Shown here: positions 47,801 through 64,000 of the stretch, piece by piece | How the letters are laid out: every line of letters begins with the position of its first letter | Numbering within the stretch: the first letter of the stretch is position 1 | Assembly (NCBI GenBank): GCA_022711405.1 | Contig: JAKLFC010000005.1 | Coordinates: 134,278 to 198,277, forward strand | DNA length: 64,000 nt | Source of the DNA: Bacteroidota bacterium | Lineage (GTDB): Bacteria; Bacteroidota; Bacteroidia; Bacteroidales; JAGONC01 | Direction: 5' to 3' | Notes under the pieces: model-generated | What the model was told of the DNA's origin: nothing | Database searches by the model: none | What the model saw: the letters and a program-made list of their open reading frames with translations, nothing else | Translations under genes and position numbers: made by a program

Positions 47801-47941
47801 TGAAGGCAATCCTTCTGTTGTTGTATAATGCTGAATATAAGGACTTTGCGCAGTGCCTCCAATGCTAAATAGAACCAGCAATACAAATAGTATGGTGAAC
47901 TCCTGTTTGCTGATTTTAAGGAAAGCACTCAATGTTTTCAT
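44887..47941 (-). pseudogene. Sensor histidine kinase (Reg_prop beta-propeller + Y_Y_Y domain + TM + LytS/YehU-type His_kinase + HATPase), reading frame broken at a G8 homopolymer
   Basis: ORF 45308-47941 encodes the propeller, Y_Y_Y (YSYMLEGADKQWS...YTFRMRV) and the TM start. ORF 44887-45573 in another frame encodes QKALQSIMNPHFIFNVL...QPYAENAVWHG. The frames join cleanly if the C8 run at 45640-45647 (G8 on the coding strand) is read as 7, giving LLGGLLSLGVILRKNAQIRRRELDHQMVILEQ. Confidence 0.8.
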
Positions 47942-49637: not shown

Positions 49638-52415
49638 TTATTTCACGCACCGCACGCTGAATCCGTTTGTCTTATCGCTTGCAAAACGGCTGACACGTGC
49701 ATCATCGTAGTTCAGGTACCTGCTCCAGGCGGTTTGAGCATCATTCTGCGTGGATGACCAGAAGGTACCCAGTTCACCCATATCAAAGAAGCCCCCGTCA
49801 TAGATGTTCCGGTATCCGCCGGGAAGTCCCGTAAACCCGCTGCTGTTCGTGGCCCCCGTGTTGGGTTCTTCCCAGTGGTCCAGCCCGGCCTCCTTCATAT
49901 GGCCCCCCGCATCCAGGCCACACTTGCCCACTTTGTCCCATTCCGGATGACCTGCCGGATACTGGCTGTCGATGGTGCCTGTGAGCGTTTTCAGCTCACT
50001 GTCGGTGGGGATGTGCCAGTTGGGCGGGCAGATGCCACGGGTACCCTGCTGGGTGACATACTGCATGGCTTCAGGCCATTCGTACAGGGCTCCATAGGTC
50101 TCACACTGCACAGGATCGTTGTTGTAACAGTATTTCTCGATGAGATCGTTGTCCGTCTGCTGGTACCCCTCTTCATCGCTGTTGATCCTGGCTCCGATAT
50201 TGAGGTTCTCCGACATCCAGCACTGAGTTCCGACCTGCACGGTGGAATAGACCTGGCCGTCGCGGAAATCGGTGAGAGGATCCCCGCAGTTGAATACGAA
50301 ACTGATCATCACTGCATCCGTTGAGCTGCTGCAATCTGTGGTGATGGTCCATGTAAGGTGATAGGTGCTGTCGACAAGGCCCTGGAAGGTGCTTGCCGGA
50401 TTCGTGGTGTCCTGGATCGTTCCCCCGGTGCCGTTCACGATATGCCACACTCCGGTACCGTTGATGGGGGTGTTGGCAGCCAGCGTGGTCATGTTTCCCG
50501 GAACGTTAATCTGATCCGGACCGGCGCTGGCAGGAGTGGGCTGTGGTACACAGCCGCGTATGCATCGGATCGAATATCCCGAAGGAGGGTTGGCATAGCT
50601 GTAGCGTAAGATGCTTTTATGCTCAAAGTCGAGCAAACGCAGCACGATATAATTCGTGTCCACCCGCGAGGAAGTCCAGAAAAAGGCCGAACTGTCCTTT
50701 TCGATGAAAGAAGCCGTGGATTTATCCCTTCGTCCGCCGGGCAGGCCGGTAAAACCGTATATGTTGGTTGCGCCTGTATTGGGTGCAGCCCACATCACCG
50801 TGGTGGTATCCTTCAGGTTCCCCCCGGCATCCAGTCCCCGCCACCAGTCGTTATCCCAGACCGGATCGCCGGCAGCATACTGGCTGTCGGTAAATCCTTC
50901 GAGCACTTTCCATTCGAAGTCGGACGGGATGTGCCATCCCAGTGGGCAAATTCCCTGGCTGCTGGGAAGGGTGGCATACTGCATGGCTTCGCCCCACTGG
51001 TAAAGACCTCCGAAAAGGGTACAATTGGCGGTATCATTGTCATAACAAAACTTTTCGATGGTTCCATTGTTCGATTGTTCAATGGTTCCTGCGATCATGG
51101 CGCCCACGTTCAGGTTTTCCTTGAGCCAGCATTGATTGCCGATCTGGACCGTGTTATAGGTACGGCCTTCGAAAACGACTTCCTCGATGTCCTCACAGGG
51201 CAAGCCGAAGAGTTCCGCAAAGCTGATTTGGACAGTGTCGGCTGAGTTGCCGCATACGGTGCTGATGATCCAGGCCAGGGCATACTCGTTGCCCTGGATG
51301 CCCTGAAAGCCGCTAAGCGGATTCAGTGTGTCGGCGATGAATCCTCCGGTACCGGTAATGATACGCCAGACACCTGTGCCGCAATCGGGCGTATTTCCTG
51401 TCAGGAACGTATAGGTGTTCTGTACATCTATCTGGTCGGAGCCTGCGCTGGCCTGGGAAGGCTGCGGCACGCAGTTCTTCAGGCACCTTACCGAGAAGCC
51501 GTTTCCCTTCGGGGAGCTGCTTCGCGTCGCATCGTCGGTGGTATAGTACATATAACGGTCCCAGCCACTGGCAGCGTCGGCAGGGGAGGAGGACCAGAAA
51601 ATGCCATATTGCCCCAGGCCCGTAAACGAACCATCGGTGCTGATGCGGTATCCTCCTGCAAGGGCAGTGAATCCGCTGGAGTTCGTGGCTCCGGTGTTAG
51701 GAGCCTGCCAGTGGGTGAGGCCAGCTTCTTTCATCCTGCCTCCGGCCTCTCCCGCGCCACCGAGGAAGGTTGTCAGTACCGTGTAATCCATGTCGGTGGG
51801 CAGGTGCCATCCGGTGGGGCAGATGCCCTGCGCGCCGGCGGTTCCCTGGTATTTCATGGCTTCAGGCCACTGGTAAAGGCCACCGTAGCTGTTGCAATTA
51901 GCCAGAATATTACCATAGCAGTACTTCTCGATGGTTCCATTGTTCGATTGTTCAATGGTTCCTGCAATCATGTTACCCACGTTCAGGTTCTCCCTGAACC
52001 AGCACTGATCCCCGATCAGCACCGTGCTGTATGTTTTTCCGCCGTAGGAAACTGCAGGCGTGCCCGGGCATTGCATTCCCGGTGTTTGCAGGATGAGACT
52101 GGTGACAGAAATGACATCAAGGATGTTGATGATCCCATCTGCGTTCATATCGGTTGCTTCCAGGTCGAACGGATCGGGGCTGCCACCCATGATATAGCTT
52201 ACCATGGCAATGACATCCAGCACATTGACCTGGCCGTCTTCGTTGGCATCTCCAAAAATGGTGTATTCACATTCAGGAGGGGAGGGTGAGGGTTCAAAGA
52301 GGCTGGCCGCCTCTGAGCCCGGCACATCCAGGCACGACAGTGATCCATATATCCGGGTGGTGTATAGGGATAACACTACTGTCATAAATGCAATGAAAAG
52401 TAGCGAATTTTTCAT
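49638..52415 (-). CDS. Secreted protein with an N-terminal type-I-like dockerin and three Fibrobacter succinogenes major paralogous (FISUMP, TIGR02145-like) domains separated by Ig-like linkers
   Basis: It has a signal peptide. The dockerin duplicated segments are GDANEDGQVNVLDVIAMVSYIMGG and DMNADGIINILDVISVTSLIL (nt 52089-52256). Three units carry Y.TV.IG.QCW..ENLN...CY.N....C..YG.LY.W.EA....CP.GWH.P(T/S)D.E...L. Confidence 0.75.
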   Translation of the reverse strand: MKNSLLFIAFMTVVLSLYTTRIYGSLSCLDVPGSEAASLFEPSPSPPECEYTIFGDANEDGQVNVLDVIAMVSYIMGGSPDPFDLEATDMNADGIINILDVISVTSLILQTPGMQCPGTPAVSYGGKTYSTVLIGDQCWFRENLNVGNMIAGTIEQSNNGTIEKYCYGNILANCNSYGGLYQWPEAMKYQGTAGAQGICPTGWHLPTDMDYTVLTTFLGGAGEAGGRMKEAGLTHWQAPNTGATNSSGFTALAGGYRISTDGSFTGLGQYGIFWSSSPADAASGWDRYMYYTTDDATRSSSPKGNGFSVRCLKNCVPQPSQASAGSDQIDVQNTYTFLTGNTPDCGTGVWRIITGTGGFIADTLNPLSGFQGIQGNEYALAWIISTVCGNSADTVQISFAELFGLPCEDIEEVVFEGRTYNTVQIGNQCWLKENLNVGAMIAGTIEQSNNGTIEKFCYDNDTANCTLFGGLYQWGEAMQYATLPSSQGICPLGWHIPSDFEWKVLEGFTDSQYAAGDPVWDNDWWRGLDAGGNLKDTTTVMWAAPNTGATNIYGFTGLPGGRRDKSTASFIEKDSSAFFWTSSRVDTNYIVLRLLDFEHKSILRYSYANPPSGYSIRCIRGCVPQPTPASAGPDQINVPGNMTTLAANTPINGTGVWHIVNGTGGTIQDTTNPASTFQGLVDSTYHLTWTITTDCSSSTDAVMISFVFNCGDPLTDFRDGQVYSTVQVGTQCWMSENLNIGARINSDEEGYQQTDNDLIEKYCYNNDPVQCETYGALYEWPEAMQYVTQQGTRGICPPNWHIPTDSELKTLTGTIDSQYPAGHPEWDKVGKCGLDAGGHMKEAGLDHWEEPNTGATNSSGFTGLPGGYRNIYDGGFFDMGELGTFWSSTQNDAQTAWSRYLNYDDARVSRFASDKTNGFSVRCVK

Positions 52416-52631: not shown

Positions 52632-52659
52632 TTTGCTAAATGATAATTACATATATTTG
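52632..52659 (+). promoter_or_regulatory. Promoter (-33 TTTG, -7 TATATTTG) for the kinase/activator pair
   Basis: TTTG at 52632-52635 and TATATTTG at 52652-52659 are 16 nt apart. The ATG is at 52678. Confidence 0.4.
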
Positions 52660-52677: not shown

Positions 52678-54444
52678 ATGGAGAAGCACCCAACGGTCAG
52701 CAAATTACAGAAACGGGTAACCCATCTTGAAGAAACCCTGGAGCGGAGAACACAGGAACTGGTAGATGAAATGATCTACTCGGTGAGGTTTATTGAAGAT
52801 ATGGTTGTAAATTCACCCTACCTGGTGGCCATCACGGATGCGGATGGCAGAATCCAATTCGTGAATGAAGTGTTCATCCAAACCATGGGGTATTCGCTGG
52901 AAGAATTGCGGGGAAAGGTCAGGATCTTTCACAAGGGATACCCCGAAGATACGAAGGGCCTTCAGGAGATCAGCGAAGCACTGAGCAGGAACGAAGCCTG
53001 GAAGGGCGCTACGGAGGTGAAGACACGTGACGGAAGGATACTCACCCTCCGGGGGATCATTTTCACTGTGATGTCAGAAACGGGAATGCCCCTCAGGATC
53101 GCCATGTTCTATGATATCACCGGTGAACGGCAACGTGAAAACCTGTTCCGGATCCTTCATGAGATCGATTCCCTCAGCAATGTTTCTGTCACCCTGGATG
53201 CATCGCTCGAACTGGCGGGCAACTACCTGCATCAGATCGAATGGATCGATCTGTTCTCGATCCATTTGATGAACGAGGCGTCAGGTTATCTGGAAATGGT
53301 CTATTCCAGGGGGACATCAAAACAGTTCGAAAACACTGTCATGCAATACCCTGCATCCAGCAGGACCGTGGCTGATGTGATCGGACATAGGGCCACCTAT
53401 ATCGATCACACCCTGTTTGATCAGTTGGTGGATGAGAACTTAAAGGATGGTTTCAGGAAAGAAGGATTGCAATATATTGCCAGCATTCCGTTGATATACC
53501 AGGATAAAGTGATCGGAGCCCTTAATCTCGGATCCAAAAAAGATCACCCTCCTGATGAGCTCACACGCACCGCCCTGGAGGCGATCGCCTCCAAGCTGGC
53601 CACCCTGATCGCCCTGGTCAGGACCCGTCAACAGCTGGAGGAGACTACCATGGAGCTGAAAAAACACATCTATGAGCTGAACACCAAACAGCAGATGCTG
53701 ATCCAGAAATCCCGCCTGGAATCGCTCGGGGAATTGTCGGCCGGCTTCAGCCATGAGATCAACCAGCCGCTGGCCGTCATCTCGCTGGTGATGGAAAATA
53801 TACTCCACAGGGTCAGCGATGGCAAAGCAGGCAAAGTGTATCTGACCCGGAAGCTGAACACCATCAGCCAGAACCTTACTAAAATACAGCAGCTTATTGA
53901 TCATATCCGTATCTTCTCCCGCGACCAGGCCGTGTTGTCGCTCGATCGTCTCGACGTCAACGAACGGATCCACAGTGCCCTTTCGATGATGGGAGCCCAG
54001 CTGCGGAAGCACCAGATCCGCGTGATCACAGACCTGTGGAACGGTGAAGGCTATACGGTCGGCAATCCCTCCCGTTTCGAACAGGTGATCCTCAACCTGC
54101 TCACCAATGCCCGTGATGCCCTGGAAGAGAAAGGAAAGCTTCATTTTGGCAACATTCAGCCCAAAGAGATCCGGATCACCACTCAACCCAACGCGAAAAA
54201 GATCGAACTAAAAGTGTGGGATAATGGAATTGGCATTCAGCATGAAAACATTGACAGGCTCTTTGACCCGTTCTATACGACAAAATCCGGGGGGACAGGC
54301 CTGGGATTGCCCATTATTTATGGCATTGTCACTGAGATGCACGGTGAGATCACTGCCCGGTCAATCCCTGGCGAGTTCACGGAAATGACCGTCTTATTGC
54401 CATTTCATCATTCCAGGATCGAAGAAGGGAGCGCTGTGCCATGA
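52678..54444 (+). CDS. PAS/GAF sensor histidine kinase (HisKA + HATPase_c), cytoplasmic
   Basis: The PAS region is ITDADGRIQFVNEVFIQTMGYSLEEL, followed by a GAF-like middle region. The H-box is FSHEINQPL. The N, G1 and G2 boxes are NLLTNARDA, DNGIGI and GTGLGL. No TM segment. ATG 52678 is preferred over the in-frame TTG at 52633 because of the promoter position. Confidence 0.85.
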   Translation: MEKHPTVSKLQKRVTHLEETLERRTQELVDEMIYSVRFIEDMVVNSPYLVAITDADGRIQFVNEVFIQTMGYSLEELRGKVRIFHKGYPEDTKGLQEISEALSRNEAWKGATEVKTRDGRILTLRGIIFTVMSETGMPLRIAMFYDITGERQRENLFRILHEIDSLSNVSVTLDASLELAGNYLHQIEWIDLFSIHLMNEASGYLEMVYSRGTSKQFENTVMQYPASSRTVADVIGHRATYIDHTLFDQLVDENLKDGFRKEGLQYIASIPLIYQDKVIGALNLGSKKDHPPDELTRTALEAIASKLATLIALVRTRQQLEETTMELKKHIYELNTKQQMLIQKSRLESLGELSAGFSHEINQPLAVISLVMENILHRVSDGKAGKVYLTRKLNTISQNLTKIQQLIDHIRIFSRDQAVLSLDRLDVNERIHSALSMMGAQLRKHQIRVITDLWNGEGYTVGNPSRFEQVILNLLTNARDALEEKGKLHFGNIQPKEIRITTQPNAKKIELKVWDNGIGIQHENIDRLFDPFYTTKSGGTGLGLPIIYGIVTEMHGEITARSIPGEFTEMTVLLPFHHSRIEEGSAVP

Positions 54445-55826
54445 AATCAGTGAAGATCCCTGTGCTGATCCTTGACGATGAGCCTGAAATAGGCCGTGAG
54501 ATAAGGGAGTTCCTCACCGGCAGCAGCTACCGGGTCAACGTGGTACTCACACCATCGGAGGCATTTCGATTCCTGGAGAAGAATCCTGTGGAGATCGCGC
54601 TTCTTGACATCTGCCTGCCGGAGATGAGCGGCCTGGAGGTGCTCAGAAAGATCCGCCAGAAATATCCTTCCACCGAAGTGATCATGATGAGCGGCCATGG
54701 CGATATGGATTCGGTGATCATGTCGCTGCGGCTGGGTGCCGTCGACTTTTTCAAGAAACCGTTCCACATGCCGGAGATGCTGGAAACACTGGATAAGACC
54801 AAAAAACTGATCCACACCGTACGGCAGTCCAATGGCGATCATTTCCGCCATGTCCTGGATGAGGATTTCGGAAAGGAACCTGCCTCGCCGCTGATCGCTG
54901 TCAGCCAGGCCATGCAGGCCGTGGTGGACCAGATGCGGCTTGTCGCCCATTCCTCCGACACCACTGTCCTGATCACCGGCGAAAGCGGCACCGGCAAGGA
55001 GCTCATCGCCCGCGGCATCCATTACCTGAGCAGCCGAAGCGACAAGCCCTTTCATGCCGTCAACTGCTCCTCTGTGCCCGACGAGCTATTCGAAAGCGAA
55101 TTTTTCGGCTACCGGAAGGGTGCGTTCACGGGAGCCCTCACCGACAAGGCCGGGTGGTTCGAGGTCGCACACCAGGGATCTCTTTTCCTGGACGAGATTG
55201 CCGATATGAAACCCGGCCTGCAGGCCAAGCTGCTGCGCATCATGGATGACCGGAAGATCAGCCGGCTGGGTTCCACCACGCTGCAAGCCGTTGATATCCG
55301 TGTGATCGCCGCCACCAACCAGGACATCGAGCGGCTGGCGCGGGAGGGACAGTTCCGCTCCGACCTGTACCACCGGCTGAACGCTTTCTGCATCCACGTC
55401 CCTCCCCTTCGCGAGCGCCGCGAGGGTATCCCGCACCTGCTCCGGCATTTTGTCGAATGGTACTCCAGGAAGCTGAACCACGATGTTCCCCGGCTGGATC
55501 CTTCGATACAGGACGCCATGCTCCGGTACGATTTCCCCGGCAATGTCAGGGAGCTGAAACACATGGTGGAGCGGGCGCTGATCCTTTGCCAGGGCGAGAC
55601 GCTCACCTTCGATCATTTCGACCAGTTGAAGATCAAGCTGCAGGCCACCGGTGCTTTTCCGGCCCATGGCAGCGCCTCCCGGCGCCTGTGCACGACCGAG
55701 AAAGAATCCATCGAGGCCGCGCTGGCCGCCTCCGGCGGCAACAAGTCGAAGGCCGCACGGATGCTGGGGATATCGCGCCAGGCATTGGATAGAAAGATAG
55801 TTAAGCTGAAGATTCAGCTTCCTTAA
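54441..55826 (+). CDS. Sigma-54-dependent response regulator (REC + AAA+ with GAFTGA + Fis-type HTH; NtrC family)
   Basis: REC is LILDDEPEI...LLDICLPEMSG. Walker A is GESGTGKE. The sigma-54 contact loop is GAFTGA. The HTH is KSKAARMLGISRQALDRKI. 4-nt overlap with the kinase gene. Confidence 0.9.
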   Translation: MKSVKIPVLILDDEPEIGREIREFLTGSSYRVNVVLTPSEAFRFLEKNPVEIALLDICLPEMSGLEVLRKIRQKYPSTEVIMMSGHGDMDSVIMSLRLGAVDFFKKPFHMPEMLETLDKTKKLIHTVRQSNGDHFRHVLDEDFGKEPASPLIAVSQAMQAVVDQMRLVAHSSDTTVLITGESGTGKELIARGIHYLSSRSDKPFHAVNCSSVPDELFESEFFGYRKGAFTGALTDKAGWFEVAHQGSLFLDEIADMKPGLQAKLLRIMDDRKISRLGSTTLQAVDIRVIAATNQDIERLAREGQFRSDLYHRLNAFCIHVPPLRERREGIPHLLRHFVEWYSRKLNHDVPRLDPSIQDAMLRYDFPGNVRELKHMVERALILCQGETLTFDHFDQLKIKLQATGAFPAHGSASRRLCTTEKESIEAALAASGGNKSKAARMLGISRQALDRKIVKLKIQLP

Positions 55827-55875
55827 ATTCCAAATCACAAGCACCAAAATCCAAGCAAATTCCAAATTCCAGGAT

Positions 55876-57371
55876 ACGAGTGTTCAAAACATTAAAAACA
55901 AATATTTAAAGCATCCATTATCAATAAATGTTCTTTGACATTTTGAGAATTAAGGTTTAGCGTTGATAGCTATCGAAAAAACGTGTTTGGGTCTCCACCA
56001 CTCTGTTCAATCATGACATCATCGATGATATCGCCTAATTCGATGGCAAATCGTCTTTTAGCTGTTTTATAGCCAAACTCGTTAATTTTTTTGTAAATCA
56101 GGATTAACATCGCAAGAATCAGGGTCATGTAAAGGAGTATTTTAATTCCATTCTCATTGACGCTGATAAGGTGAGAAAAATTTAACTCCTGTTTGATAAA
56201 CCGGAAAAAGACTTCAATATCCCATCGGTGTTTGTATATCAGGATGATCTCCTGGCAGGTCAAATCAAACCGATTGGTCAGAAACCAGTATTGTATTCCT
56301 TTTGCGTTTTGTGTCTGGATTAATCGAAACGGATGTTCCAGCACATGATTTCCGGATCGATACAGGTATACGCACTGATCTTTCAAAACAGTAAGATTCC
56401 TGACAACAAGGCCTGGTGGAAAGGCAATATCATTCAAAACAACATGACGGGCATCTACCTGCAATCGGGTAACAAAGGAACAGTCATGTGTGTCCAGTTC
56501 GTAGAAGACATCACGGCTTGAAACACCCCTGTCAAAGACAAAAACATTGTCTTTGCTTTTATCCATGACCTTGAGGATGACTTTGGGGATGGTCAGGCTC
56601 TCGCAGATATACTTTTGTTGAGTAAAGATCTCTACGCTGCTGGGAAACATGTCTGTTAAACTGATGGTGTACTTGACCTGCTTTTTACCATCTTTTTTCA
56701 CCCCGACACGGATTCCCTGCTCAAGTTTGGCAGCGGTTTGACAAACCATGGTTGAATCAACCCGTGTAATCCTATAGTGTAGAGATAAAGTCGGTTCATC
56801 GTATAAAAGGCTGCATTGCTCATGGATGGCCTCATAAGCCTTCTCGAAATAACTGACATTCATGGTTGCCAACCGGGCAGAAAGAGAATTGTACCTGGCA
56901 TTCGGCGGGGTGCCAGGTAATTTGAACATAGCCTTAAATTTCCGGGAGTTGTAGAAGTCCTCCAGCGACCTTAGTCCCACTCGCTCCCCGGTAAGAAGTC
57001 CATATAACAATAAATTAAACACATTACGGCCATAGAGCTTTTTGACCTGATAATCCACCTTGGTTTCCTTAGCTAAATCAAGCAATAGATCATCCGGGAT
57101 GAGTTTTAACAGATCGCTGACTCCGATGCCATCTTCCTTGAACTTCATTATGGTAAAGAATAGCATCAAAGGTAATGACGAATAGTGTGGTAATCGACTC
57201 AAAATCAACAGATTTTATCAACACAGCATGAAACAAATTGTTGATAACCAGTGATTTAGATAAATATACACAGATAGATAGTTAATATCATCCTATATAT
57301 TGTTAACAACGCCTATTTTCTCAAAATGTCAAAGAACGTTAAGTATGATCTAGAATGTTTTGAACACTCGT
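55876..57371 (-). mobile_element. Complete IS4-family-like insertion sequence, 1496 bp
   Basis: The 18-bp terminal inverted repeats are perfect: ACGAGTGTTCAAAACATT (55876-55893) and AATGTTTTGAACACTCGT (57354-57371). An 11-bp direct repeat AATTCCAGGAT flanks it (55865-55875 and 57372-57382). There is a single transposase ORF. A second internal 20-bp inverted repeat GTTCTTTGACATTTTGAGAA lies at 55930-55949 / 57318-57337. Confidence 0.85.
55970..57208 (-). CDS. IS4-family DDE transposase
   Basis: 412-aa maximal ORF. The likely start is MKFKEDG at 57148. The N-terminal region DLLKLIPDDLLLDLAKETKVDYQVKKL and the C-terminal YKHRWDIEVFFRFIKQ (Y-x2-R-x3-E-x6-K-type signature) are typical of IS4 transposases. 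Confidence 0.8.
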   Translation of the reverse strand: MILSRLPHYSSLPLMLFFTIMKFKEDGIGVSDLLKLIPDDLLLDLAKETKVDYQVKKLYGRNVFNLLLYGLLTGERVGLRSLEDFYNSRKFKAMFKLPGTPPNARYNSLSARLATMNVSYFEKAYEAIHEQCSLLYDEPTLSLHYRITRVDSTMVCQTAAKLEQGIRVGVKKDGKKQVKYTISLTDMFPSSVEIFTQQKYICESLTIPKVILKVMDKSKDNVFVFDRGVSSRDVFYELDTHDCSFVTRLQVDARHVVLNDIAFPPGLVVRNLTVLKDQCVYLYRSGNHVLEHPFRLIQTQNAKGIQYWFLTNRFDLTCQEIILIYKHRWDIEVFFRFIKQELNFSHLISVNENGIKILLYMTLILAMLILIYKKINEFGYKTAKRRFAIELGDIIDDVMIEQSGGDPNTFFR

Positions 57372-57645
57372 AATTCCAGGATCCAAAAGCCAAATAAATT
57401 CCAGGATCCAAATTCCAAACGAAAGTCGCACTCCCATTACTTATCGTGGGAGTGGGATCATTTCATATTTTTTCCCTCCTCTGGTCAATCTCCTTCTCCT
57501 TTCACCTCAACTTCTATCTGGGTAATCAGTAATGGTTATTCCTCCTGCCCGTTTGCCCATTTCCGGGCATAAAAAATCGCCCGCTTCTTTCTCCTCTCTC
57601 CTCTCTCCTCTTTCCTTTCTCCTCTCATTCAACGCTTTACAAGCT

Positions 57646-57662
57646 TCGGCACAGTAATTGAC
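57646..57662 (+). promoter_or_regulatory. Candidate sigma-54 (-24/-12) promoter upstream of the pseudo-receiver/giant-protein genes
   Basis: tcGGCACagtaaTTGAc compares with the consensus TGGCAC-N5-TTGC(A/T). The -24 GG and the spacing are correct, but the -12 reads GA instead of GC. It lies 35 nt upstream of ATG 57696 and downstream of a sigma-54 activator gene. Confidence 0.3.
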
Positions 57663-57695
57663 TTTCCTGACCCCCAATTTTTATCCTTCACCCAT

Positions 57696-58031
57696 ATGAA
57701 AAGATCCCTTCTTTTCATAGGATACGATGCTCAGGTGGAGCAGGAGATCCGAGAGTCGTTATGCGATAAAGTATCCGAGTGTTTCTTTGTCCAGACACCT
57801 GTGGAGGCTATCCGCACGGTGGATGATCACGCGGTGGACTGCGTGGTGCTAAATTTTTCGGCTTTCAGCGACGCGTCGCTGATACGGTACTTCAGCCAGT
57901 ATCATCCGGGCATCCGGTTGGTGTTATCGGCCAGCAGGGAGTTCGACGAGGTGATCTCCATCTTCAGCGAGAGCACCTACTCGCGGTTGCCTCGTCCCTT
58001 CCGGCTGGAACAGCTGCGGGAGATGATTTAA
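57696..58031 (+). CDS. Stand-alone receiver-like protein with degenerate phosphorylation site (pseudo-receiver)
   Basis: 111 aa with a REC-like beta-alpha pattern. The beta-3 position reads CVVLNFS (Asn where the acceptor Asp is expected). The beta-1 end has a single acidic residue (GYD). The beta-5 region reads RPF instead of KPF. Confidence 0.55.
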   Translation: MKRSLLFIGYDAQVEQEIRESLCDKVSECFFVQTPVEAIRTVDDHAVDCVVLNFSAFSDASLIRYFSQYHPGIRLVLSASREFDEVISIFSESTYSRLPRPFRLEQLREMI

Positions 58032-58133
58032 AAATCAAAGATCAAAGAGCAAAGATCAAAGATCAAATAACAATGGAACAATCGAACAATGGATAACAAT
58101 TTAACAATTTAATATTTAACAATTTATAACAAG
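58032..58133. repeat. Simple-sequence spacer: CAAAGAT heptamer array followed by AACAAT(G/T)G/AACAATTT words
   Basis: The sequence is aaatcaaagatcaaagagcaaagatcaaagatcaaataacaatggaacaatcgaacaatggataacaatttaacaatttaatatttaacaatttataacaag. It lies between the pseudo-receiver stop and the giant ORF. Confidence 0.8.
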
Positions 58134-58174
58134 ATATAATCCAATCATTTAGAATCAACCCAAATCTTAGAATT

Positions 58175-61100
58175 ATGAAAAAGAATTTTACTCTTGTTAT
58201 GCTGACAGGTATGTTGATGTTCAGCATATTCAGTATTGCTCAAACTACGTACACATTTCCTGGCGGGACTTTAAGCGGATCCTTCGGAGTTTGGGGGGGT
58301 ACAGGTTATTTTTACCCACCCTCCTTCAATGTGAATGCACCCGGGGGGATTGATATTACATATTTTGATATTGATGTATCCCAATTTACGGAGGCAAATG
58401 TTTGGTCTACAAAAGGTGTCGCAGAACCTGGAATAAGTGGCTCAAATTTCATGAATAGTATTGATCCAGAGAATAATAGCGTATGGTGCAATATTTTAAA
58501 CATGGAAATTGCTTCTGGTGTCGATTGGGACGGTCACTCTTTATCAACTTTGGGTCCTGATGGAATCGTTGGGACATCTGACGATTCAAGACATCAGGGT
58601 ACTCAGGATTGGTACAGGAAAGCCACTGACGGTAAGATTGACGGTCCGGCTGCTGGTCCGTATTATAATAACGAAAGTTATGTAACGCCTAATCCACGCC
58701 ACCCTTCTGCAACGGCATACAGTGCTTCTCAATTGAACAGTTACGATTTTCGTTTACGGGTTTTGCCAACAGGAGGAAACACCTATACGTATGAGATGTG
58801 GTTCAGGATGCATAATTCTGCTGCTGAGGTTGAAGGAGCCTATTGGGCCTACAATACCGCACTTAATAACACAGCAAAACATGGGACCGATGCCTGGAGA
58901 AAATTTGCTCAAGGGCCGACGGATGTATTTCCTATAACAGATATTGATCTATCCTCAGTCTATGTTTTTATGGGTCTGGGGAATTTCGCAGATCCTGCCT
59001 CTCACTCACTAGCCTGGGGTCAGATACAGGTCACGGGCACTTATGCCGCACCTGCGGAGGTTTGGGTAGATGATGGCTATACTTCCAGCGGACCGAATGA
59101 CGGGCACTGGTGGGGATATGACGCATTTGCAACCATACAGGACGGTGTCAACGCGGTGGCCACGGGAGGTACGGTGAATGTGGCAGCGGGGACGTATACT
59201 GAGCAAATAAATGTAATAAAAGCAGTCATTATTAAAGGGAACAATGCCGGAGTAGCCGGTTGCGGAACAACAAGAAATACAGAATCAATCGTTAACGGAG
59301 GATTTTACCTTACCGCTGCAGCCACCATCGACGGATTTCATATTCAGAATGGATACCATTTCGGATCTTTTTATGACGGTCTAGCTGTAAATACCGACGA
59401 TGTAACCCTTCAAAACAACATCATCGAATTATGTGATGATGCTGCACAAGGCAATGGTATAGAGATGGTCAGCGGATCTGACAATCTGGATATCGTCGCG
59501 AATGATATCAGGAACAATTGGAGAGGGATTTATCTCAATCCTGCAACTGGCATTACTATTACTGCTAACTGCATTCACGACAATAACGGTTGCGGGGTTG
59601 GCATCGGTTCCGACGGACAAAACAACCTGACCGTTACCCACAATTTCTTTTACAATCAGACTGTGGAAGGATGGGGTGCCAGTGCAGTTGGAGCCAATGT
59701 GGTTGCGCATAACAACTCTTTCATCCAAAGCGGCACAGCCAAGATGGTTGCCCACTACGGTGGTTCTGCCATAGACGCCTCCTGCAACTGGTGGGGGTCA
59801 GCAAGTCCTGATTTTACAAGCCTGATCACTGGTTTAGTAAATGCTGACCCATGGTTGGTGGATGGGACGGACAACAGTGCTGAAATCGGATTTCAACCTT
59901 TGTATGACGCCTGTTCCGGTACAAATAATCCTGTGACCTATGCCGCCAAGGAAGTCAAGCCTACCGGCAGCATCAGCCTGCCCGTCATGGTGGATAATTT
60001 CAACAATGTGGCTGCTATCTCTTTGTACATGAACTTTGATCCCGCCATACTTACCTTTACAGGATTTACCCCGCATGGTTCCCTGCCGTCACTTACCGCC
60101 ACAAATCCTTCTTCAGGCCTGATCATTATCGGTTGGAACAATGGCGCCGCTGGGGTGACCATACCGGGCAGCAAAGTGGAAATTGTCATGCTCCATTTTA
60201 CTTTCGCCGGAGGCACTTCCCTGCTTGCGTGGGATGACACCGACGATTGGCCTTGCGAGTATGCCTATCCGGTCAGTTCCTGGGAAACAGCAGTGTATCC
60301 CGATGATCCTGCCTCCACTTATTACATTCCGGGCTGGGTGACCAACCTGGGGGTGACTTTCACCCGGACTTACACTCCGGCACCCGGGACCATCACGGCG
60401 GTACCCCAGGGAGGTACAAGTCCGTTTACTTATTCCTGGACAGGACCGGGTGGATTCACTGCCGGAAATACGGCAACCATAACCCCCACCAACGAGTATG
60501 GCGACTACGTGGTAACGGTGACCGACGCCCTCGGAGCAACAACAACGGGCACTTATTACTACGGCCCGGTGCATAATATCGATACATATATTGATTATGC
60601 GTTGCTGAATGATGCCATTGATGCTGCTGCCACTCTTGACGGGCACACCATCACCATGGATCCGGGCACTTATGTCGAAATCGGGCAAATTGTCGTGGAC
60701 AAGAATCTGACCATCATCGGTGACAGTAAGACGACAACCATCATCAAACCAAATGCAGATTATACATCATCTACCGACGGATGGATCAAGGTGGTTGGAG
60801 GAAAAACGCTGGATCTTTCCAATGTCCAGCTTGACGGTACAGGCTATAATATTTTTAATGCCATGTATTTCCTTGGAGATGGTAATGTCGATAACTGTAC
60901 CATCACAGACATACAATATCAACCTTCAGGGCCGGCTTACCGCGGGACAGGAATTCTGGTGGAAAATGGCTGCGATGTGGATATTACCGGTTGTGATTTT
61001 ACGTATATCGGACGTGACGGTATTCGCCACAGGGGTACAGGAGCCGTACAGAATAACACTTACACCGGCAAAGGTGCAGGCGATTGGATGGATTATTTTA

Positions 61101-64000
61101 TCCTGGCCGAATACGGCTGCAACATTTTGATCGAAGGCAACACGGTGACTAACTGTGTTGGTGTAGCCACGGTAGATGGATCAGGTTCTGCAGCCATAGC
61201 TGTCTGGGATGAGGAAAATACCACTGCAGTCATCACAAACAATATTCTGACCGGTAATTCAACAGGGATTGGAATAGCAGGAATAAACAGCGCTACACTT
61301 CCCTGGCCATGGCCTGTTGTTACCATTGGCAACGGAAACGTAATTACGGGAGGTGAATTCGGGATCACCATGGACGTCTATTCCGGCTATACCTGCAATC
61401 CCCCTGTCACGTTCGGCACAACAACCATAACAGGACAAACGGTTGCTGCAATCAGCATCGGCGATGCTGTCAGCCCCGGAACCAATTATGATATCAGCAG
61501 CATTACTCTGAGTACGACGGATAACTGCAGCAGGGAAGACCTGGTAATCCATGCCATTGATGCGGGGAACAGGGCCCTCCTGGTTTGGAATCCCAACAAT
61601 GTGTATGTGACTGTTAACAGCTTTGTGGCGCCAGAAACCGTACCAAGCATCCAGCGTGGTATTGATGCCGTGGGAGCCACAGGATGGACAGTGAATGTCT
61701 GCCCGGGTACCTATGGCATTACCACGCAGATACTGGTCAATAAAAGCGTTGACATTGTGGGGGATGTAACCAGCAGGCCTGTCGTGCAGGCTCTGAATGA
61801 TCTGAACGGAGGCACAGCCGGATCCTATATTTTCAGGGTAGACAATGCGGTAAATGCCAACGTGGACATAAGCAATCTGGTTCTGGATGGAAACGGATAT
61901 AATGTGTATGGCGGAATGAAGTATAATTCGAACCATACCGGTGTAGTTAATAATTGCAGGTTCCAGAATATTGTTGCTCCCGGCTATTCAGGATTTGGGA
62001 TCGTCGATTATGGTACCATGACCATCACAAATAACGTGTTTACGAACATCGGCAGGGTCGGTATGTGGATCGGAGGCCCGGGAAATAACGTATCGTACAA
62101 TACCTACACCGGGAAAGGCGCCATTGATTGCCTTGATTACGGTATTGAAGTCGGCTTCGGGGGAGATGCTGACATAACCTTCAATACCATAACGAATTGC
62201 AAAGGGACAGCTTCAGATTTTTCAACTTCAGCTGGGATCATGGCTACCACTTATTTCGGACCCGGAACTGCAGCCATCATTGAAAACAACGTGATAACCG
62301 GAAATACGGAGGGTATTGTGGTTGGTTATGATGAAACTGACGGCAGTACAGTGACCGTTCACAACAATGACATTTCGGGTAATACAAATTATGGGATCAT
62401 CAGCACTGCACCCACCGTTAATGCCACGTGCAACTGGTGGGGAACTGCGGACGGCGACCTTGTGCTGGATGAGACTTCAGGAAATGTCACCTATTGGCCA
62501 TGGCTGGTGAGTGGAACAAATGAAGTTCTGGCCGGGCCCGGTTTTTACCAGGCCAGCCCGATCTGCACCGGCACCCCGGTGGTCGCCTCTGCCGTACCGA
62601 CTCCTGTGTATTGCGGCCCGACACCCGGATCCATCCTGGTCATATGGACAGGAGGAACACCCAATTACACCGTAAGCTGGACCGGAACATCCAGCGGCTC
62701 GGCACCGGGCCTTGCTTCATCACCCTATACGATTGCAGGGCTGACAGCGGGTTCCTTCACGGTTACCGTAACCGACGCCAACGGATCTTCATCCACCGTG
62801 GATCCGGTTGTGGTTCAGTACCTGCCGGTGCACAATGTGACGCAGAATACCTATTATGCTACGATACAGGCGGCCATTGACGCTTTATCTACGGTCGATG
62901 GTGATGTGATCCAGGTATGTGCAGGAACATATAATGAGGCTCTGAACATAAACAAGGCTCTGACAGTACAAGGAGCAGGGTTATCCACAACTACAATTGA
63001 TGCGACAGGTAAGCTTGCCTCAGCTGTGACAATAACAGCCACAGGCAGTGTTAAACTTGATGGATTTAAAATCTTCAATGCAACTACTTCTGATGGAAAC
63101 CATTTTGAAATTACCCTCAGTGGTGGTAGCCTAGGTAGTACAATAGAAATCTCGAATAATAATATTATCGGTGCAGGAGATGCAGATAATGACGACTATG
63201 GATTTTATTCTGGATTATGTTCTTCCAATCTGATCTTCAGAAATAATACGATCAGCAACTGTGCCTCTCATTCCCTTTTCCTTGAAAGACTTCTAGGAAC
63301 CTCTGATATCAAGGACAACACGATCAATTCACGCTCTGATGCAGGTCCGGCAATTGGATTAATGACATATAAGACCTCAGGAGATCCGGTTAGCAATTAC
63401 GAGATAACAGCCAAACAATGGATCCATAATAACACTATTGACGCGAATGGCTCTAGTGGTATTTTATTAATGGCACCTTACGGATCGAGCTATGATCAGT
63501 ATCCTGGAGGTAAATACACCAATATTGAAATATCAGGTAATATAATATCTAATGTCGGTGGTAATGGTAAGGGGATACAACTTGAATCAGACGGTGACGG
63601 TGGCAGTATTGAGAATGCAATAATAACTCAAAACAGTATCAGCGCACAAATTCCTGGATCAGGCACATCACGCGGAATCAGAATGCTTGGGAATGTCATT
63701 AATACGAACATTACTGAAAATACTTTGAATGGTTTTTACAGGGGGGTTTATCAGAGCTATTCCTATGGTCAGCCTGGAATTCCTGGTCCAAGTAATAATC
63801 TGGTCAATAACAACTCAATAACCGGCTGTACCTATGCAGTCGAGAATCAATACACTGACATATTGAATGCCACCTGCAACTGGTACGGCACGGCCGATGG
63901 TGACCTGATTGCCCCGATGATTGCCGGGCCGGTTGATTACGATTCCTGGCTGTCCGATGGTACCGATAACGACGGTGCAACCCCGGGTTTCCAGTCGGTC
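58175..64000 (+). CDS. Giant secreted surface protein, 3' end cut by the window edge (>1942 aa). It has an unknown N-terminal domain, at least four right-handed parallel beta-helix modules, one cohesin-like module and two SprB/HYR-like repeats.
   Basis: It is absent from the ORF track because no stop occurs. I translated the frame from ATG 58175 by hand and it stays open to nt 64000 (exactly 1942 codons). The signal peptide is MKKNFTLVMLTGMLMFSIFSIAQ. The module starts are of the type Y.TIQ.AI.A...GD.I.V..GTY.E (nt ~59040, 60550, 61600, 62830). PbH1-like N-x-I-x-G/N repeats are present. The caps are CNWWG, CNWWG and CNWYG (59782, 62428, 63871). Confidence 0.85.
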   Translation, partial: MKKNFTLVMLTGMLMFSIFSIAQTTYTFPGGTLSGSFGVWGGTGYFYPPSFNVNAPGGIDITYFDIDVSQFTEANVWSTKGVAEPGISGSNFMNSIDPENNSVWCNILNMEIASGVDWDGHSLSTLGPDGIVGTSDDSRHQGTQDWYRKATDGKIDGPAAGPYYNNESYVTPNPRHPSATAYSASQLNSYDFRLRVLPTGGNTYTYEMWFRMHNSAAEVEGAYWAYNTALNNTAKHGTDAWRKFAQGPTDVFPITDIDLSSVYVFMGLGNFADPASHSLAWGQIQVTGTYAAPAEVWVDDGYTSSGPNDGHWWGYDAFATIQDGVNAVATGGTVNVAAGTYTEQINVIKAVIIKGNNAGVAGCGTTRNTESIVNGGFYLTAAATIDGFHIQNGYHFGSFYDGLAVNTDDVTLQNNIIELCDDAAQGNGIEMVSGSDNLDIVANDIRNNWRGIYLNPATGITITANCIHDNNGCGVGIGSDGQNNLTVTHNFFYNQTVEGWGASAVGANVVAHNNSFIQSGTAKMVAHYGGSAIDASCNWWGSASPDFTSLITGLVNADPWLVDGTDNSAEIGFQPLYDACSGTNNPVTYAAKEVKPTGSISLPVMVDNFNNVAAISLYMNFDPAILTFTGFTPHGSLPSLTATNPSSGLIIIGWNNGAAGVTIPGSKVEIVMLHFTFAGGTSLLAWDDTDDWPCEYAYPVSSWETAVYPDDPASTYYIPGWVTNLGVTFTRTYTPAPGTITAVPQGGTSPFTYSWTGPGGFTAGNTATITPTNEYGDYVVTVTDALGATTTGTYYYGPVHNIDTYIDYALLNDAIDAAATLDGHTITMDPGTYVEIGQIVVDKNLTIIGDSKTTTIIKPNADYTSSTDGWIKVVGGKTLDLSNVQLDGTGYNIFNAMYFLGDGNVDNCTITDIQYQPSGPAYRGTGILVENGCDVDITGCDFTYIGRDGIRHRGTGAVQNNTYTGKGAGDWMDYFILAEYGCNILIEGNTVTNCVGVATVDGSGSAAIAVWDEENTTAVITNNILTGNSTGIGIAGINSATLPWPWPVVTIGNGNVITGGEFGITMDVYSGYTCNPPVTFGTTTITGQTVAAISIGDAVSPGTNYDISSITLSTTDNCSREDLVIHAIDAGNRALLVWNPNNVYVTVNSFVAPETVPSIQRGIDAVGATGWTVNVCPGTYGITTQILVNKSVDIVGDVTSRPVVQALNDLNGGTAGSYIFRVDNAVNANVDISNLVLDGNGYNVYGGMKYNSNHTGVVNNCRFQNIVAPGYSGFGIVDYGTMTITNNVFTNIGRVGMWIGGPGNNVSYNTYTGKGAIDCLDYGIEVGFGGDADITFNTITNCKGTASDFSTSAGIMATTYFGPGTAAIIENNVITGNTEGIVVGYDETDGSTVTVHNNDISGNTNYGIISTAPTVNATCNWWGTADGDLVLDETSGNVTYWPWLVSGTNEVLAGPGFYQASPICTGTPVVASAVPTPVYCGPTPGSILVIWTGGTPNYTVSWTGTSSGSAPGLASSPYTIAGLTAGSFTVTVTDANGSSSTVDPVVVQYLPVHNVTQNTYYATIQAAIDALSTVDGDVIQVCAGTYNEALNINKALTVQGAGLSTTTIDATGKLASAVTITATGSVKLDGFKIFNATTSDGNHFEITLSGGSLGSTIEISNNNIIGAGDADNDDYGFYSGLCSSNLIFRNNTISNCASHSLFLERLLGTSDIKDNTINSRSDAGPAIGLMTYKTSGDPVSNYEITAKQWIHNNTIDANGSSGILLMAPYGSSYDQYPGGKYTNIEISGNIISNVGGNGKGIQLESDGDGGSIENAIITQNSISAQIPGSGTSRGIRMLGNVINTNITENTLNGFYRGVYQSYSYGQPGIPGPSNNLVNNNSITGCTYAVENQYTDILNATCNWYGTADGDLIAPMIAGPVDYDSWLSDGTDNDGATPGFQSV

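Follow-up and report, generated by a model that had tools for sequence, protein, structure and literature searches.

Near the end of a 64,000-nt stretch of DNA from a Bacteroidales bacterium (contig JAKLFC010000005.1; the whole stretch is called the window hereafter), we found a locus that brings together the genes of a soluble histidine kinase (HK) and of an NtrC-family sigma-54 enhancer-binding response regulator (EBP), a predicted enhancer, a predicted sigma-54 promoter, the gene of a stand-alone pseudo-receiver of 111 aa and that of a giant secreted protein. Kinase, activator, enhancer, promoter and targets very probably constitute a two-component sigma-54 circuit. By analogy with known systems, the pseudo-receiver might feed back on the two-component system that would induce it, and we put the chances of this a little below even. 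Taken as a whole, the circuit with such a feedback is probably the best explanation of the locus. An earlier reading of the same DNA, made from its letters alone (the sequence-only reading), had proposed a regulatory unit of this kind, and its claims are taken up where the results bear on them. Homologs were gathered by sequence search, a metagenome scan and a DNA-pattern scan of GTDB, and their upstream regions were then compared; loci are designated by L numbers. Features lie on the plus strand unless stated otherwise.

Kinase and activator genes

The kinase gene (52678-54444) encodes a soluble PAS-GAF protein of 588 aa with matches to PAS_9, GAF_2, HisKA and HATPase_c. Depending on the gene caller its length is 588 or 595 aa, with an alternative TTG start at 52633, and inspection of the translation showed no hydrophobic segment at the N-terminus. 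The start of the EBP gene (54441-55826) overlaps the kinase stop via ATGA. Its product consists of a receiver domain (REC), an AAA+ domain and HTH_8, with scores of 90.6 bits for Response_reg, 217 bits for Sigma54_activat (PF00158) and 52 bits for HTH_8; AAA_lid_14 was also matched. The receiver residues D12, D13, D56 and K106 are intact in the translation, as is the GAFTGA loop of the AAA+ domain. The translational coupling of a PAS/GAF kinase to an NtrC-type activator carrying GAFTGA, as read earlier from the letters, is in this way confirmed in its domains, its ATGA overlap and its loop. With a sigma-54 interaction domain, the acceptor Asp and a C-terminal Fis-type helix-turn-helix (HTH), the activator has the features of an NtrC-family bacterial enhancer-binding protein, and its NCBI entry (HOW25959.1) is titled 'sigma-54 dependent transcriptional regulator [Bacteroidales bacterium]'. 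Its best NCBIfam matches were AtoC and NtrC, both under the equivalog cutoffs; judged by these scores, all of them far under the cutoffs, it is the ortholog of no named EBP.

Eighteen nucleotides 5' of the kinase ATG lies TATATTTG (52652-52659), a -7 box of the Bacteroidetes sigma-A type, for which the consensus TAnnTTTG has been reported (PMC9723704). It is the sole exact TAnnTTTG among the four intergenic regions examined and is likely the promoter of the kinase-activator operon.

Predicted promoter and enhancer upstream of the pseudo-receiver gene

The predicted sigma-54 promoter, GGCAC-agtaa-TTGA (57648-57661; -24 GG, -12 GA), is located 34 nt before the pseudo-receiver ATG, and transcription is predicted to start at about 57671-57674. 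This element owes its significance solely to its conservation in relatives. A -24/-12 element was found 22-48 nt 5' of the pseudo-receiver ATG at 16 of 16 loci, representing about 13 lineages. The subfamily comprises the window, L010, L015, L008, L011, L016, L017, L018, L019, L020 and L049, with protein identities to the window from 97% to 29%, and at all 11 loci GGCA[CT]-N5-TTG[ACT] was present 28-48 nt before the ATG. The gene neighbourhoods of five distant members (L092, L093, L094, L096 and L097), which share at most 25% identity with the window protein, were also inspected. On the -12 side, TTGC was found in L011, L019, L020, L049 and L097, the others reading TTGA, TTGT, ATGC or GTGC, and GG-N10-GC variants occurred in L092, L094, L096 and L097. 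In the alignment of ten upstream regions (A2), GGCA and TTG were invariant in all ten. A strict form of the motif occurred 23 times on both strands of 346 kb of non-redundant loci, 13 of these at the pre-ATG position. In the window and six relatives, no TAnnTTTG box was found 5' of the pseudo-receiver gene or of the giant gene. We infer that the pseudo-receiver operon depends on sigma-54. A TA dinucleotide (cttTAca; window 57638-57639, A2 columns 114-115), about 9-10 nt before the GG, was also invariant in the ten aligned regions and might extend the contact with sigma-54 or mark a site of bending.

Further upstream, a predicted enhancer (upstream activating sequence) conserved in relatives spans 57546-57583. 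It is composed of a half-site, TGCCCG (57546-57551), a palindrome, TGCCCA-TTTC-CGGGCA (57554-57569), and a third half-site, GCCCG (57579-57583). TGCCCG-N4-CGGGCA was present at 10 of the 10 subfamily loci with enough upstream DNA, and at these loci a third half-site, (T)GCCC[GA], came 7-9 nt past the palindrome. The distances from the palindrome centre to the GG were 84, 86, 86, 86, 94, 95, 95, 96, 96 and 96 bp. These values fall into two classes one helical turn apart, which matches the expectation that the activator faces the polymerase. The invariant columns of A2 are essentially CCC, CGGGCA, GGCA and TTG, and the rest of the spacer has diverged. From these regions we infer that the EBP binds the enhancer at 57546-57583. 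When a combined enhancer and promoter DNA pattern was run over 596 Gb of GTDB genomes, 64 matches were obtained: 63 were chance matches in GC-rich genomes, and one was a true member, L049, a named Bacteroidales metagenome-assembled genome (MAG) that this DNA pattern added to the family. A scan of GTDB species genomes with protein patterns taken from the family alignment gave zero matches, the peptide patterns being too narrow.

The sequence-only reading had placed the activator site on an 8-bp inverted repeat at 57429-57454. The repeat exists, and it is contained in a stable hairpin followed by a U-rich run (57427-57456); as RNA it folds with -21.4 kcal/mol (z = -4.5). Neither L010 nor L015, two relatives with 95-97% identical proteins, has the repeat. 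Unconserved there and terminator-like in its fold, it was ruled out as the activator site, and in our comparison the hairpin is better read as a lineage-specific terminator-like element, not an enhancer. No known RNA family was matched in 55800-58300 (Rfam).

The 43-nt pure-pyrimidine tract noticed earlier at 57584-57626 is exact in length and coordinates. It occupies the spacer between enhancer and promoter and is the sole homopurine/homopyrimidine run of at least 20 nt in the window. In L015 (95% identical protein), TGACTGC-type repeats of the same length stand in its place, and the distance from the palindrome end to the GG is 78 nt in both. Between these two loci, then, the length of the spacer is conserved and its sequence is not. 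CT-rich read-through insulators have been described for E. coli sigma-54 promoters (bioRxiv 10.1101/086108); the tract is unlikely to be one, since it lies at 70-112 nt from the ATG instead of within 25 nt and is replaced in L015.

The intergenic DNA of this lineage consists mostly of short tandem low-complexity repeats, namely AAATTCCA, CAAAGAT, ACAATTTA, TCATCAC and (C)TGACTG. Such stretches were seen in the window at 55827-55874, 57373-57425 and 58032-58150, in L011 (1-30) and in the enhancer-promoter spacers of L015-L020, where the repeats differ by strain and the length is kept.

Gene order in relatives

Except in L096 and L020, the EBP gene is the immediate 5' neighbour of the pseudo-receiver gene wherever enough upstream DNA was available, namely in L010, L015, L016, L017, L008, L049, L092, L093 and L094. 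Across lineages, the EBPs of the subfamily show 53-62% identity and have the HTH segment ISRQALDRK in common. In the window, L010, L008, L011, L017 and L049, the pseudo-receiver is followed by a large secreted beta-helix protein.

The distant members retain part of this order. L092 and L094 present a TPR-kinase gene, an EBP gene, a gap of about 270 nt and a pseudo-receiver gene, with the promoter TTGGCAC-N5-ATGCT, and the genes downstream encode small membrane proteins (DUF898, DUF6567, DUF4282). L093 presents a PAS-kinase, an EBP and a pseudo-receiver, with GGCAT-N5-TTGA and TGCCCG-ATTC-AGGGCA, after which come an ORF of 82 aa and a protein at least 1,011 aa long, and L097 carries a perfect TTTGGCAC-N5-TTGCT with CCCGATTTCGG repeats. 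In these gene neighbourhoods, the sigma-54 promoter is constant and so, usually, is the kinase-EBP pair, while the downstream genes vary. Because they vary, an adhesin-specific role of the pseudo-receiver is disfavoured and a role in the signalling circuit is favoured. Two further features of the L092/L094 branch were noted. Three copies of TTTCTCG-N4/5-GAGAA(T)A stand 5' of the promoter (L092 7734-8000, L094 4171-4438), a different enhancer in a distant branch, and L092 has a second, divergently oriented TPR-kinase/EBP pair beside the first.

One could suppose that the pseudo-receiver is an accessory of the giant protein, for example a cytoplasmic chaperone or targeting factor, and that the link to sigma-54 is incidental. 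This would explain why a large secreted beta-helix protein is always next in the close subfamily, at the six loci listed above. It is improbable all the same: in distant members the downstream genes encode small membrane proteins or unrelated secreted proteins while HK, EBP and promoter stay, and we know of no receiver fold that serves as a secretion chaperone. With synteny and promoter motifs conserved in relatives, the view that kinase, EBP, sigma-54 promoter, pseudo-receiver and adhesin form one unit is upheld. The sequence-only reading had further supposed that sigma-54 control is exerted through the pseudo-receiver, and this part falls: the pseudo-receiver gene is the first target gene, not an intermediary, and it stays with HK, EBP and promoter in distant members.

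Several observations weigh against the circuit or its parts. Taken by itself, GGCAC-N5-TTGA is at chance level (one match in the window versus 1.21 expected). It departs from TGGCAC-N5-TTGCW at three positions, and in a test against the sigma-54 consensus it kept the GG and the 10-bp spacing and read GA at -12, where GC is canonical. The palindrome of the window has one mismatch (TGCCCA) and the original half-site is displaced, which could weaken binding. No rpoN was found among the proteins of the 64-kb window. In L017 the kinase gene is not adjacent, and in L096 no EBP gene is present within 615 nt 5' and the promoter reads TTGGTAC-N5-GTGCT. As for the giant protein, Por_Secre_tail appeared only as a faint precomputed match to the full product; the DNA that we scanned ends 44 codons before the stop. 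Finally, the evidence for a feedback by the pseudo-receiver is gene order, fold and analogy. With regard to GGCAC-N5-TTGA as a sigma-54 promoter, what stands of the original proposal is the presence of the element and its conserved position at the 16 loci; what does not is any significance drawn from the window alone.

These points lead to another possibility, in which the element and the palindrome would serve a different regulator as its conserved operator or form a 5' leader element, with a sigma-70 family factor transcribing the operon. The off-consensus -12 and the chance frequency would suit it, and a weak sigma-70-like match (57658-57687) overlaps the element, such matches being no commoner than in shuffled sequence. 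Nevertheless, we find it very improbable, given the fixed position of the element in about 13 lineages, the invariant GGCA and TTG in the ten aligned regions, and distant members with a perfect TGGCAC-N5-TTGCT (L097) or with TTGGCAC-N5-ATGCT (L092, L094). Moreover, a sigma-54 activator gene adjoins the element, save in L096 and L020 among loci with enough upstream DNA, and neither a Bacteroidetes -7 box nor an Rfam match was found. A sigma-54 promoter served by the adjacent EBP is the reading that we retain.

IS4 insertion between the activator gene and its probable target

An IS4-family insertion sequence (IS) of 1,498 bp (55875-57372, minus strand) begins 48 nt past the EBP stop, where it had been placed at 50 nt. 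Its transposase gene (55970-57166, or up to 57208, minus strand) encodes a DDE_Tnp_1 protein that scored 129.6 bits against NCBIfam transpos_IS4_1 (cutoff 115). The element is bounded by perfect terminal inverted repeats of 19 bp, TACGAGTGTTCAAAACATT, and flanked by a 9-bp target-site duplication, ATTCCAGGA (left copy 55866-55874, right copy 57373-57381); DDE transposase, terminal repeats and target duplication together place it in the IS4 family. In L010, whose pseudo-receiver is 97% and whose activator is 95% identical, the gene order is kept, the IS is absent and one ATTCCAGGA is found exactly at the junction, so that the EBP gene directly precedes the promoter/pseudo-receiver region in this IS-free relative. 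An identical pseudo-receiver was found on ten contigs (from at least six samples or assemblies), with the IS at the same site in 5/5 places shown. An identical transposase was also found at an unrelated site, between CarbopepD_reg_2 and ATP synthase genes, in L085, which comes from the sample of L010 (ERZ25038436), whose strain is IS-free at the regulator locus, and the 1,498-nt contig L091 is the IS alone. This second site and the IS-only contig indicate that the element is mobile and multicopy, and from its sequence context it appears to be currently active. Judged against the empty site of L010, the insertion is recent and precise and lies between the EBP gene and its target. With a single ATTCCAGGA in that site and intact reading frames, the earlier statement that the IS separates the activator from its target and destroys neither holds good.

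In the IS-bearing strain the enhancer is altered as well. The window reads TGCCCGTT-TGCCCATT-TCCGGGCA at 57546-57569, and IS-free relatives read TGCCCGTTTCCGGGCA (L010 7494-7509). The change resembles an 8-bp tandem duplication together with a G-to-A change, and it was seen at six of the six IS-bearing loci checked (L001-L006). One may ask whether this strain has a circuit in decay, its operon uncoupled from the activator by the IS and by the changes in the enhancer, and now either silent or read from an IS-borne promoter. That the enhancer is altered only in the IS-bearing strain, that the IS is at the same site wherever it was shown among the ten contigs, and that the terminator-like hairpin lies between the IS and the enhancer would agree with decay. 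Against it, none of the four reading frames is broken, the pseudo-receiver and that of the IS-free relative are 97% identical, the giant ORF is complete with 3,329 aa, and the palindrome retains 11 of 12 arm bases at the correct spacing. The transposase gene, in addition, is transcribed toward the activator gene, not toward the downstream operon. EBPs are trans-acting, and displacement of their enhancers is tolerated in known systems, as established for NtrC. We regard decay as improbable. With a trans-acting EBP and with enhancer, promoter and reading frames all intact, the circuit should still function after the insertion.

Foreign DNA has entered the stretch from the EBP stop to the enhancer (window 55827-57545) at least two times independently, as the IS4 element in the window and as a minus-strand NTP_transf_2 nucleotidyltransferase gene in L008 (9053-9850). 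In L020 (1-800), a minus-strand 23S-rRNA-IVP/bAvd-like gene lies just 5' of the enhancer and no EBP gene is visible on the contig. The window and L010 have unrelated sequence 5' of the enhancer despite 95-97% identical proteins.

The pseudo-receiver and its family

The first gene behind the predicted promoter (57696-58031) encodes a stand-alone protein of 111 aa, entered at NCBI as 'hypothetical protein PK711_09860'. A Pfam scan of this protein gave no match. Its AlphaFold model shows the (beta-alpha)5 receiver fold (pLDDT 90), and all of the top 50 Foldseek matches listed were receiver domains, with TM scores of about 0.8; the FrzS receiver ranked 12 and PorX receivers ranked 30-31 (TM 0.75-0.80). 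With the family profile, the NtrC receiver 1dc7 was matched at E = 5e-5. At the acceptor position, the end of beta-3, the window protein has N53 (N, Y, H or M in close homologs), and the conserved Lys of the beta5 K-P-F motif is replaced by R100 (R, Q, L or H in close homologs). The receiver-like ORF without acceptor Asp, noticed earlier, is thus borne out by fold and by residue. On these residues, we consider that the pseudo-receiver is not phosphorylatable. It does not seem to be a recent duplicate of the EBP's own receiver domain, for which BLASTP gave E = 1.8 and no support. RemF and RemG of the Flavobacterium sprB operon were rejected as counterparts, RemF being an exported precursor.

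In a HMMER search of 1.84 billion representative proteins, 251 matches were obtained at E <= 1e-3 and 76 at E <= 1e-10. Among the best 150 matches, 124 were stand-alone proteins of 67-160 aa; the acceptor Asp was present in 8 of these 124 representatives and the Lys in 15. The best-conserved block of the family is beta4-alpha4-beta5-alpha5, SANKEFDEVISIF...LPRPFRLEEL. In receiver domains, beta4-alpha4-beta5-alpha5 is the usual dimerisation face. Members examined are annotated at NCBI as 'hypothetical protein' and at JGI as 'DNA-binding NtrC family response regulator', despite having no DNA-binding domain. We tentatively suggest, at somewhat lower confidence than the feedback itself, that they form an undescribed and widespread family of Bacteroidales pseudo-receivers (at least about 120 clusters at 50% identity), encoded by the first gene of sigma-54 operons beside kinase-EBP pairs and acting as anti- or co-activators. 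If so, its members would pair with the EBP receiver as mixed dimers or block the kinase, providing a built-in feedback of a kind not described before.

Stand-alone receiver-fold proteins often work through protein-protein contact, and the pseudo-receiver could accordingly be an output or connector protein that binds another kinase, a component of the T9SS (type IX secretion system) or gliding machinery, as the PorX receiver does, or a second messenger, and that couples pathways in this manner. The PorX receivers among the structural matches and the size and diversity of the family would be in keeping with such a role. We nonetheless think it unlikely, since HK and EBP are the only consistently co-occurring partners, the best sequence match is to NtrC-type receivers, and the structural matches are generic receivers with no specific PorX likeness. 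A feedback on the neighbouring two-component system is what we favour over a connector. It was proposed because the pseudo-receiver would be unable to take phosphate and its best-conserved surface is the receiver dimerisation face.

Proposed circuit

In the circuit that we propose, the kinase and the activator would be made from their own sigma-A type promoter. A cytoplasmic signal would lead the kinase to phosphorylate the activator at D56, and the activator would then bind TGCCC(G/A)-N4-CGGGCA and the adjacent half-sites at 57546-57583. Through DNA looping it would touch the sigma-54 RNA polymerase at GGCAC-N5-TTGA, about 86 bp downstream. Opening of the promoter would give a single transcript carrying the genes of the 111-aa pseudo-receiver and of the 3,329-aa beta-helix/SprB-repeat protein. 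The pseudo-receiver might in turn feed back, either by binding the receiver domain of the activator or by occupying the docking site of the kinase; by analogy with PspA/PspF and HrpV/HrpS, we lean toward a negative sign for this feedback.

The giant protein and other genes of the window

The second target is the giant gene, of which the window holds the 5' part (58175-64000; 1,942 of 3,329 codons). The reading frame is open to the window end and the full product has 3,329 aa. The N-terminus resembles a signal peptide. Several beta-helix modules follow (Beta_helix 122.7 bits; NosD also matched). A cohesin domain (59852-60334, aa 592-676) scored 24.8 bits against a cutoff of 24.1, which is marginal and was reached only when the segment was scanned alone. 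For SprB, the score is weak within the window but 54.8 bits (cutoff 28) past its end, in the C-terminal part taken from L001; the homolog in L017 has SprB at 81 bits. Of the ORF first described as a beta-helix/cohesin/SprB protein of more than 1,942 codons, the length and the beta-helix are secure, the cohesin is marginal and SprB is strong only beyond the window. By its SprB repeats the protein qualifies as an SprB-like giant adhesin, the adhesin role being putative.

Between the pseudo-receiver gene and the giant gene lies an A-rich low-complexity spacer of 143 nt (58032-58174), in which we found no terminator-like site, no -7 box and no stable fold (z = +0.44). The corresponding spacers of relatives measure 43-97 nt. 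The two genes are probably co-transcribed, which is the most economical reading because the spacer is without terminator or -7 box and is short in relatives.

Beside the kinase gene and divergent from it, a minus-strand gene (49638-52415) encodes a protein of 925 aa in which a type I dockerin is combined with three domains of the FISUMP type (Fibrobacter succinogenes major paralogous), a neighbour that also occurs in L010. The dockerin of this protein and the cohesin of the giant protein may form a cell-surface cohesin-dockerin pairing. Further away, the minus strand encodes at 45308-47941 a protein of 877 aa that carries Reg_prop beta-propeller repeats and Y_Y_Y, the sensor part of hybrid two-component systems, and no kinase or receiver match was found in it; L007, which is this region in the NCBI MAG, has a separate His_kinase ORF of 216 aa close by. 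Clear Por_Secre_tail domains were found in three other window ORFs and in neighbours in relatives. The window has, besides these three further ORFs with a T9SS sorting domain, genes for DUF4199, DUF4831 and a type III glutamine synthetase, a gene content in keeping with Bacteroidota.

Relation to known systems

NtrBC is the classical example of a two-component sigma-54 circuit whose upstream enhancers are phased. The present locus resembles NtrB/NtrC-glnAp2, AtoS/AtoC and ZraS/ZraR in that a kinase gene is coupled to that of a REC-AAA+-HTH_8 activator with GAFTGA, and the NtrB/NtrC-glnAp2 type also in the palindromic enhancer some 85-95 bp 5' of the -24/-12 promoter and in the helical phasing. 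It differs from NtrB/NtrC-type systems in its soluble PAS-GAF sensor, in its target, which is a giant secreted protein and not a metabolic operon, in having a pseudo-receiver gene as first target gene, and in the TTGA of the -12 element in many members.

In the PspF/PspA and HrpS/HrpV systems, the target operon of the sigma-54 activator encodes its own anti-activator. The likeness, as judged from gene order, is that a small non-enzymatic cytoplasmic protein comes first behind the EBP-dependent promoter. PspA is a coiled coil whereas a receiver fold is predicted here, and the EBP has a receiver domain whereas PspF is without one. Going by the structural model, the pseudo-receiver is no fold homolog of PspA or HrpV, and the likeness is one of circuit logic only.

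Other receiver folds with replaced active-site residues are the FrzS receiver, the KaiA N-terminal domain, HP1043 and ChxR, which share the CheY-like (beta-alpha)5 fold. These are domains of larger proteins or DNA-binding regulators, in contrast to the stand-alone 111-aa protein tied to sigma-54 promoters, and they have no specific sequence tie to it, its best profile match being the NtrC receiver. PorX is a phosphorylated receiver-PglZ protein that works with an extracytoplasmic function (ECF) sigma factor. PorX/PorY is alike in that two-component control is linked to T9SS-type cargo, and also in the fold, with the TM scores given above, and unlike in that the regulator here is a sigma-54 EBP and the small protein is without acceptor Asp.

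The sequence-only reading knew of no described case in which sigma-54 controls a giant T9SS-type adhesin through a pseudo-receiver. This overstates the novelty, for sigma-54 control of such an adhesin has been shown before. Sigma-54 promoters of Bacteroidota have been mapped in Flavobacterium psychrophilum; one of them belongs to remFG-sprCDBF, the operon of the giant T9SS adhesin SprB, and reporter mutagenesis confirmed it (PMC9723704). Both are Bacteroidota operons of a giant SprB-repeat protein, with a -24/-12 promoter that is confirmed in F. psychrophilum and predicted here. The F. psychrophilum operon also possesses a second promoter (SM5). Neither a dedicated kinase-EBP pair nor an enhancer is described next to it, and it begins with remF and remG (RemF being exported) whereas the locus analysed here begins with the pseudo-receiver gene. 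The repeats of the giant protein are similar to those of SprB, with no orthology implied. In the paper collection searched, no paper paired 'pseudo-receiver' with 'sigma-54', and co-mentions with 'enhancer-binding protein' were only incidental. What appears to be new is the kinase-EBP-enhancer-promoter cassette placed beside its target, together with a family of stand-alone pseudo-receivers as first target gene.

The control of the very large exported surface proteins of Bacteroidota is poorly understood, and sigma-54 circuits outside Proteobacteria are known mostly from motif predictions. This locus offers a compact and specified circuit, with sensor, activator, enhancer, promoter and targets, and natural IS-bearing and IS-free strains that can be compared. 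Should the activator or the kinase be subject to feedback from the pseudo-receiver, the latter would represent a new partner-switching class for two-component and sigma-54 signalling, and this would account for a family of 'hypothetical' proteins in many Bacteroidales of anaerobic digesters and sediments.

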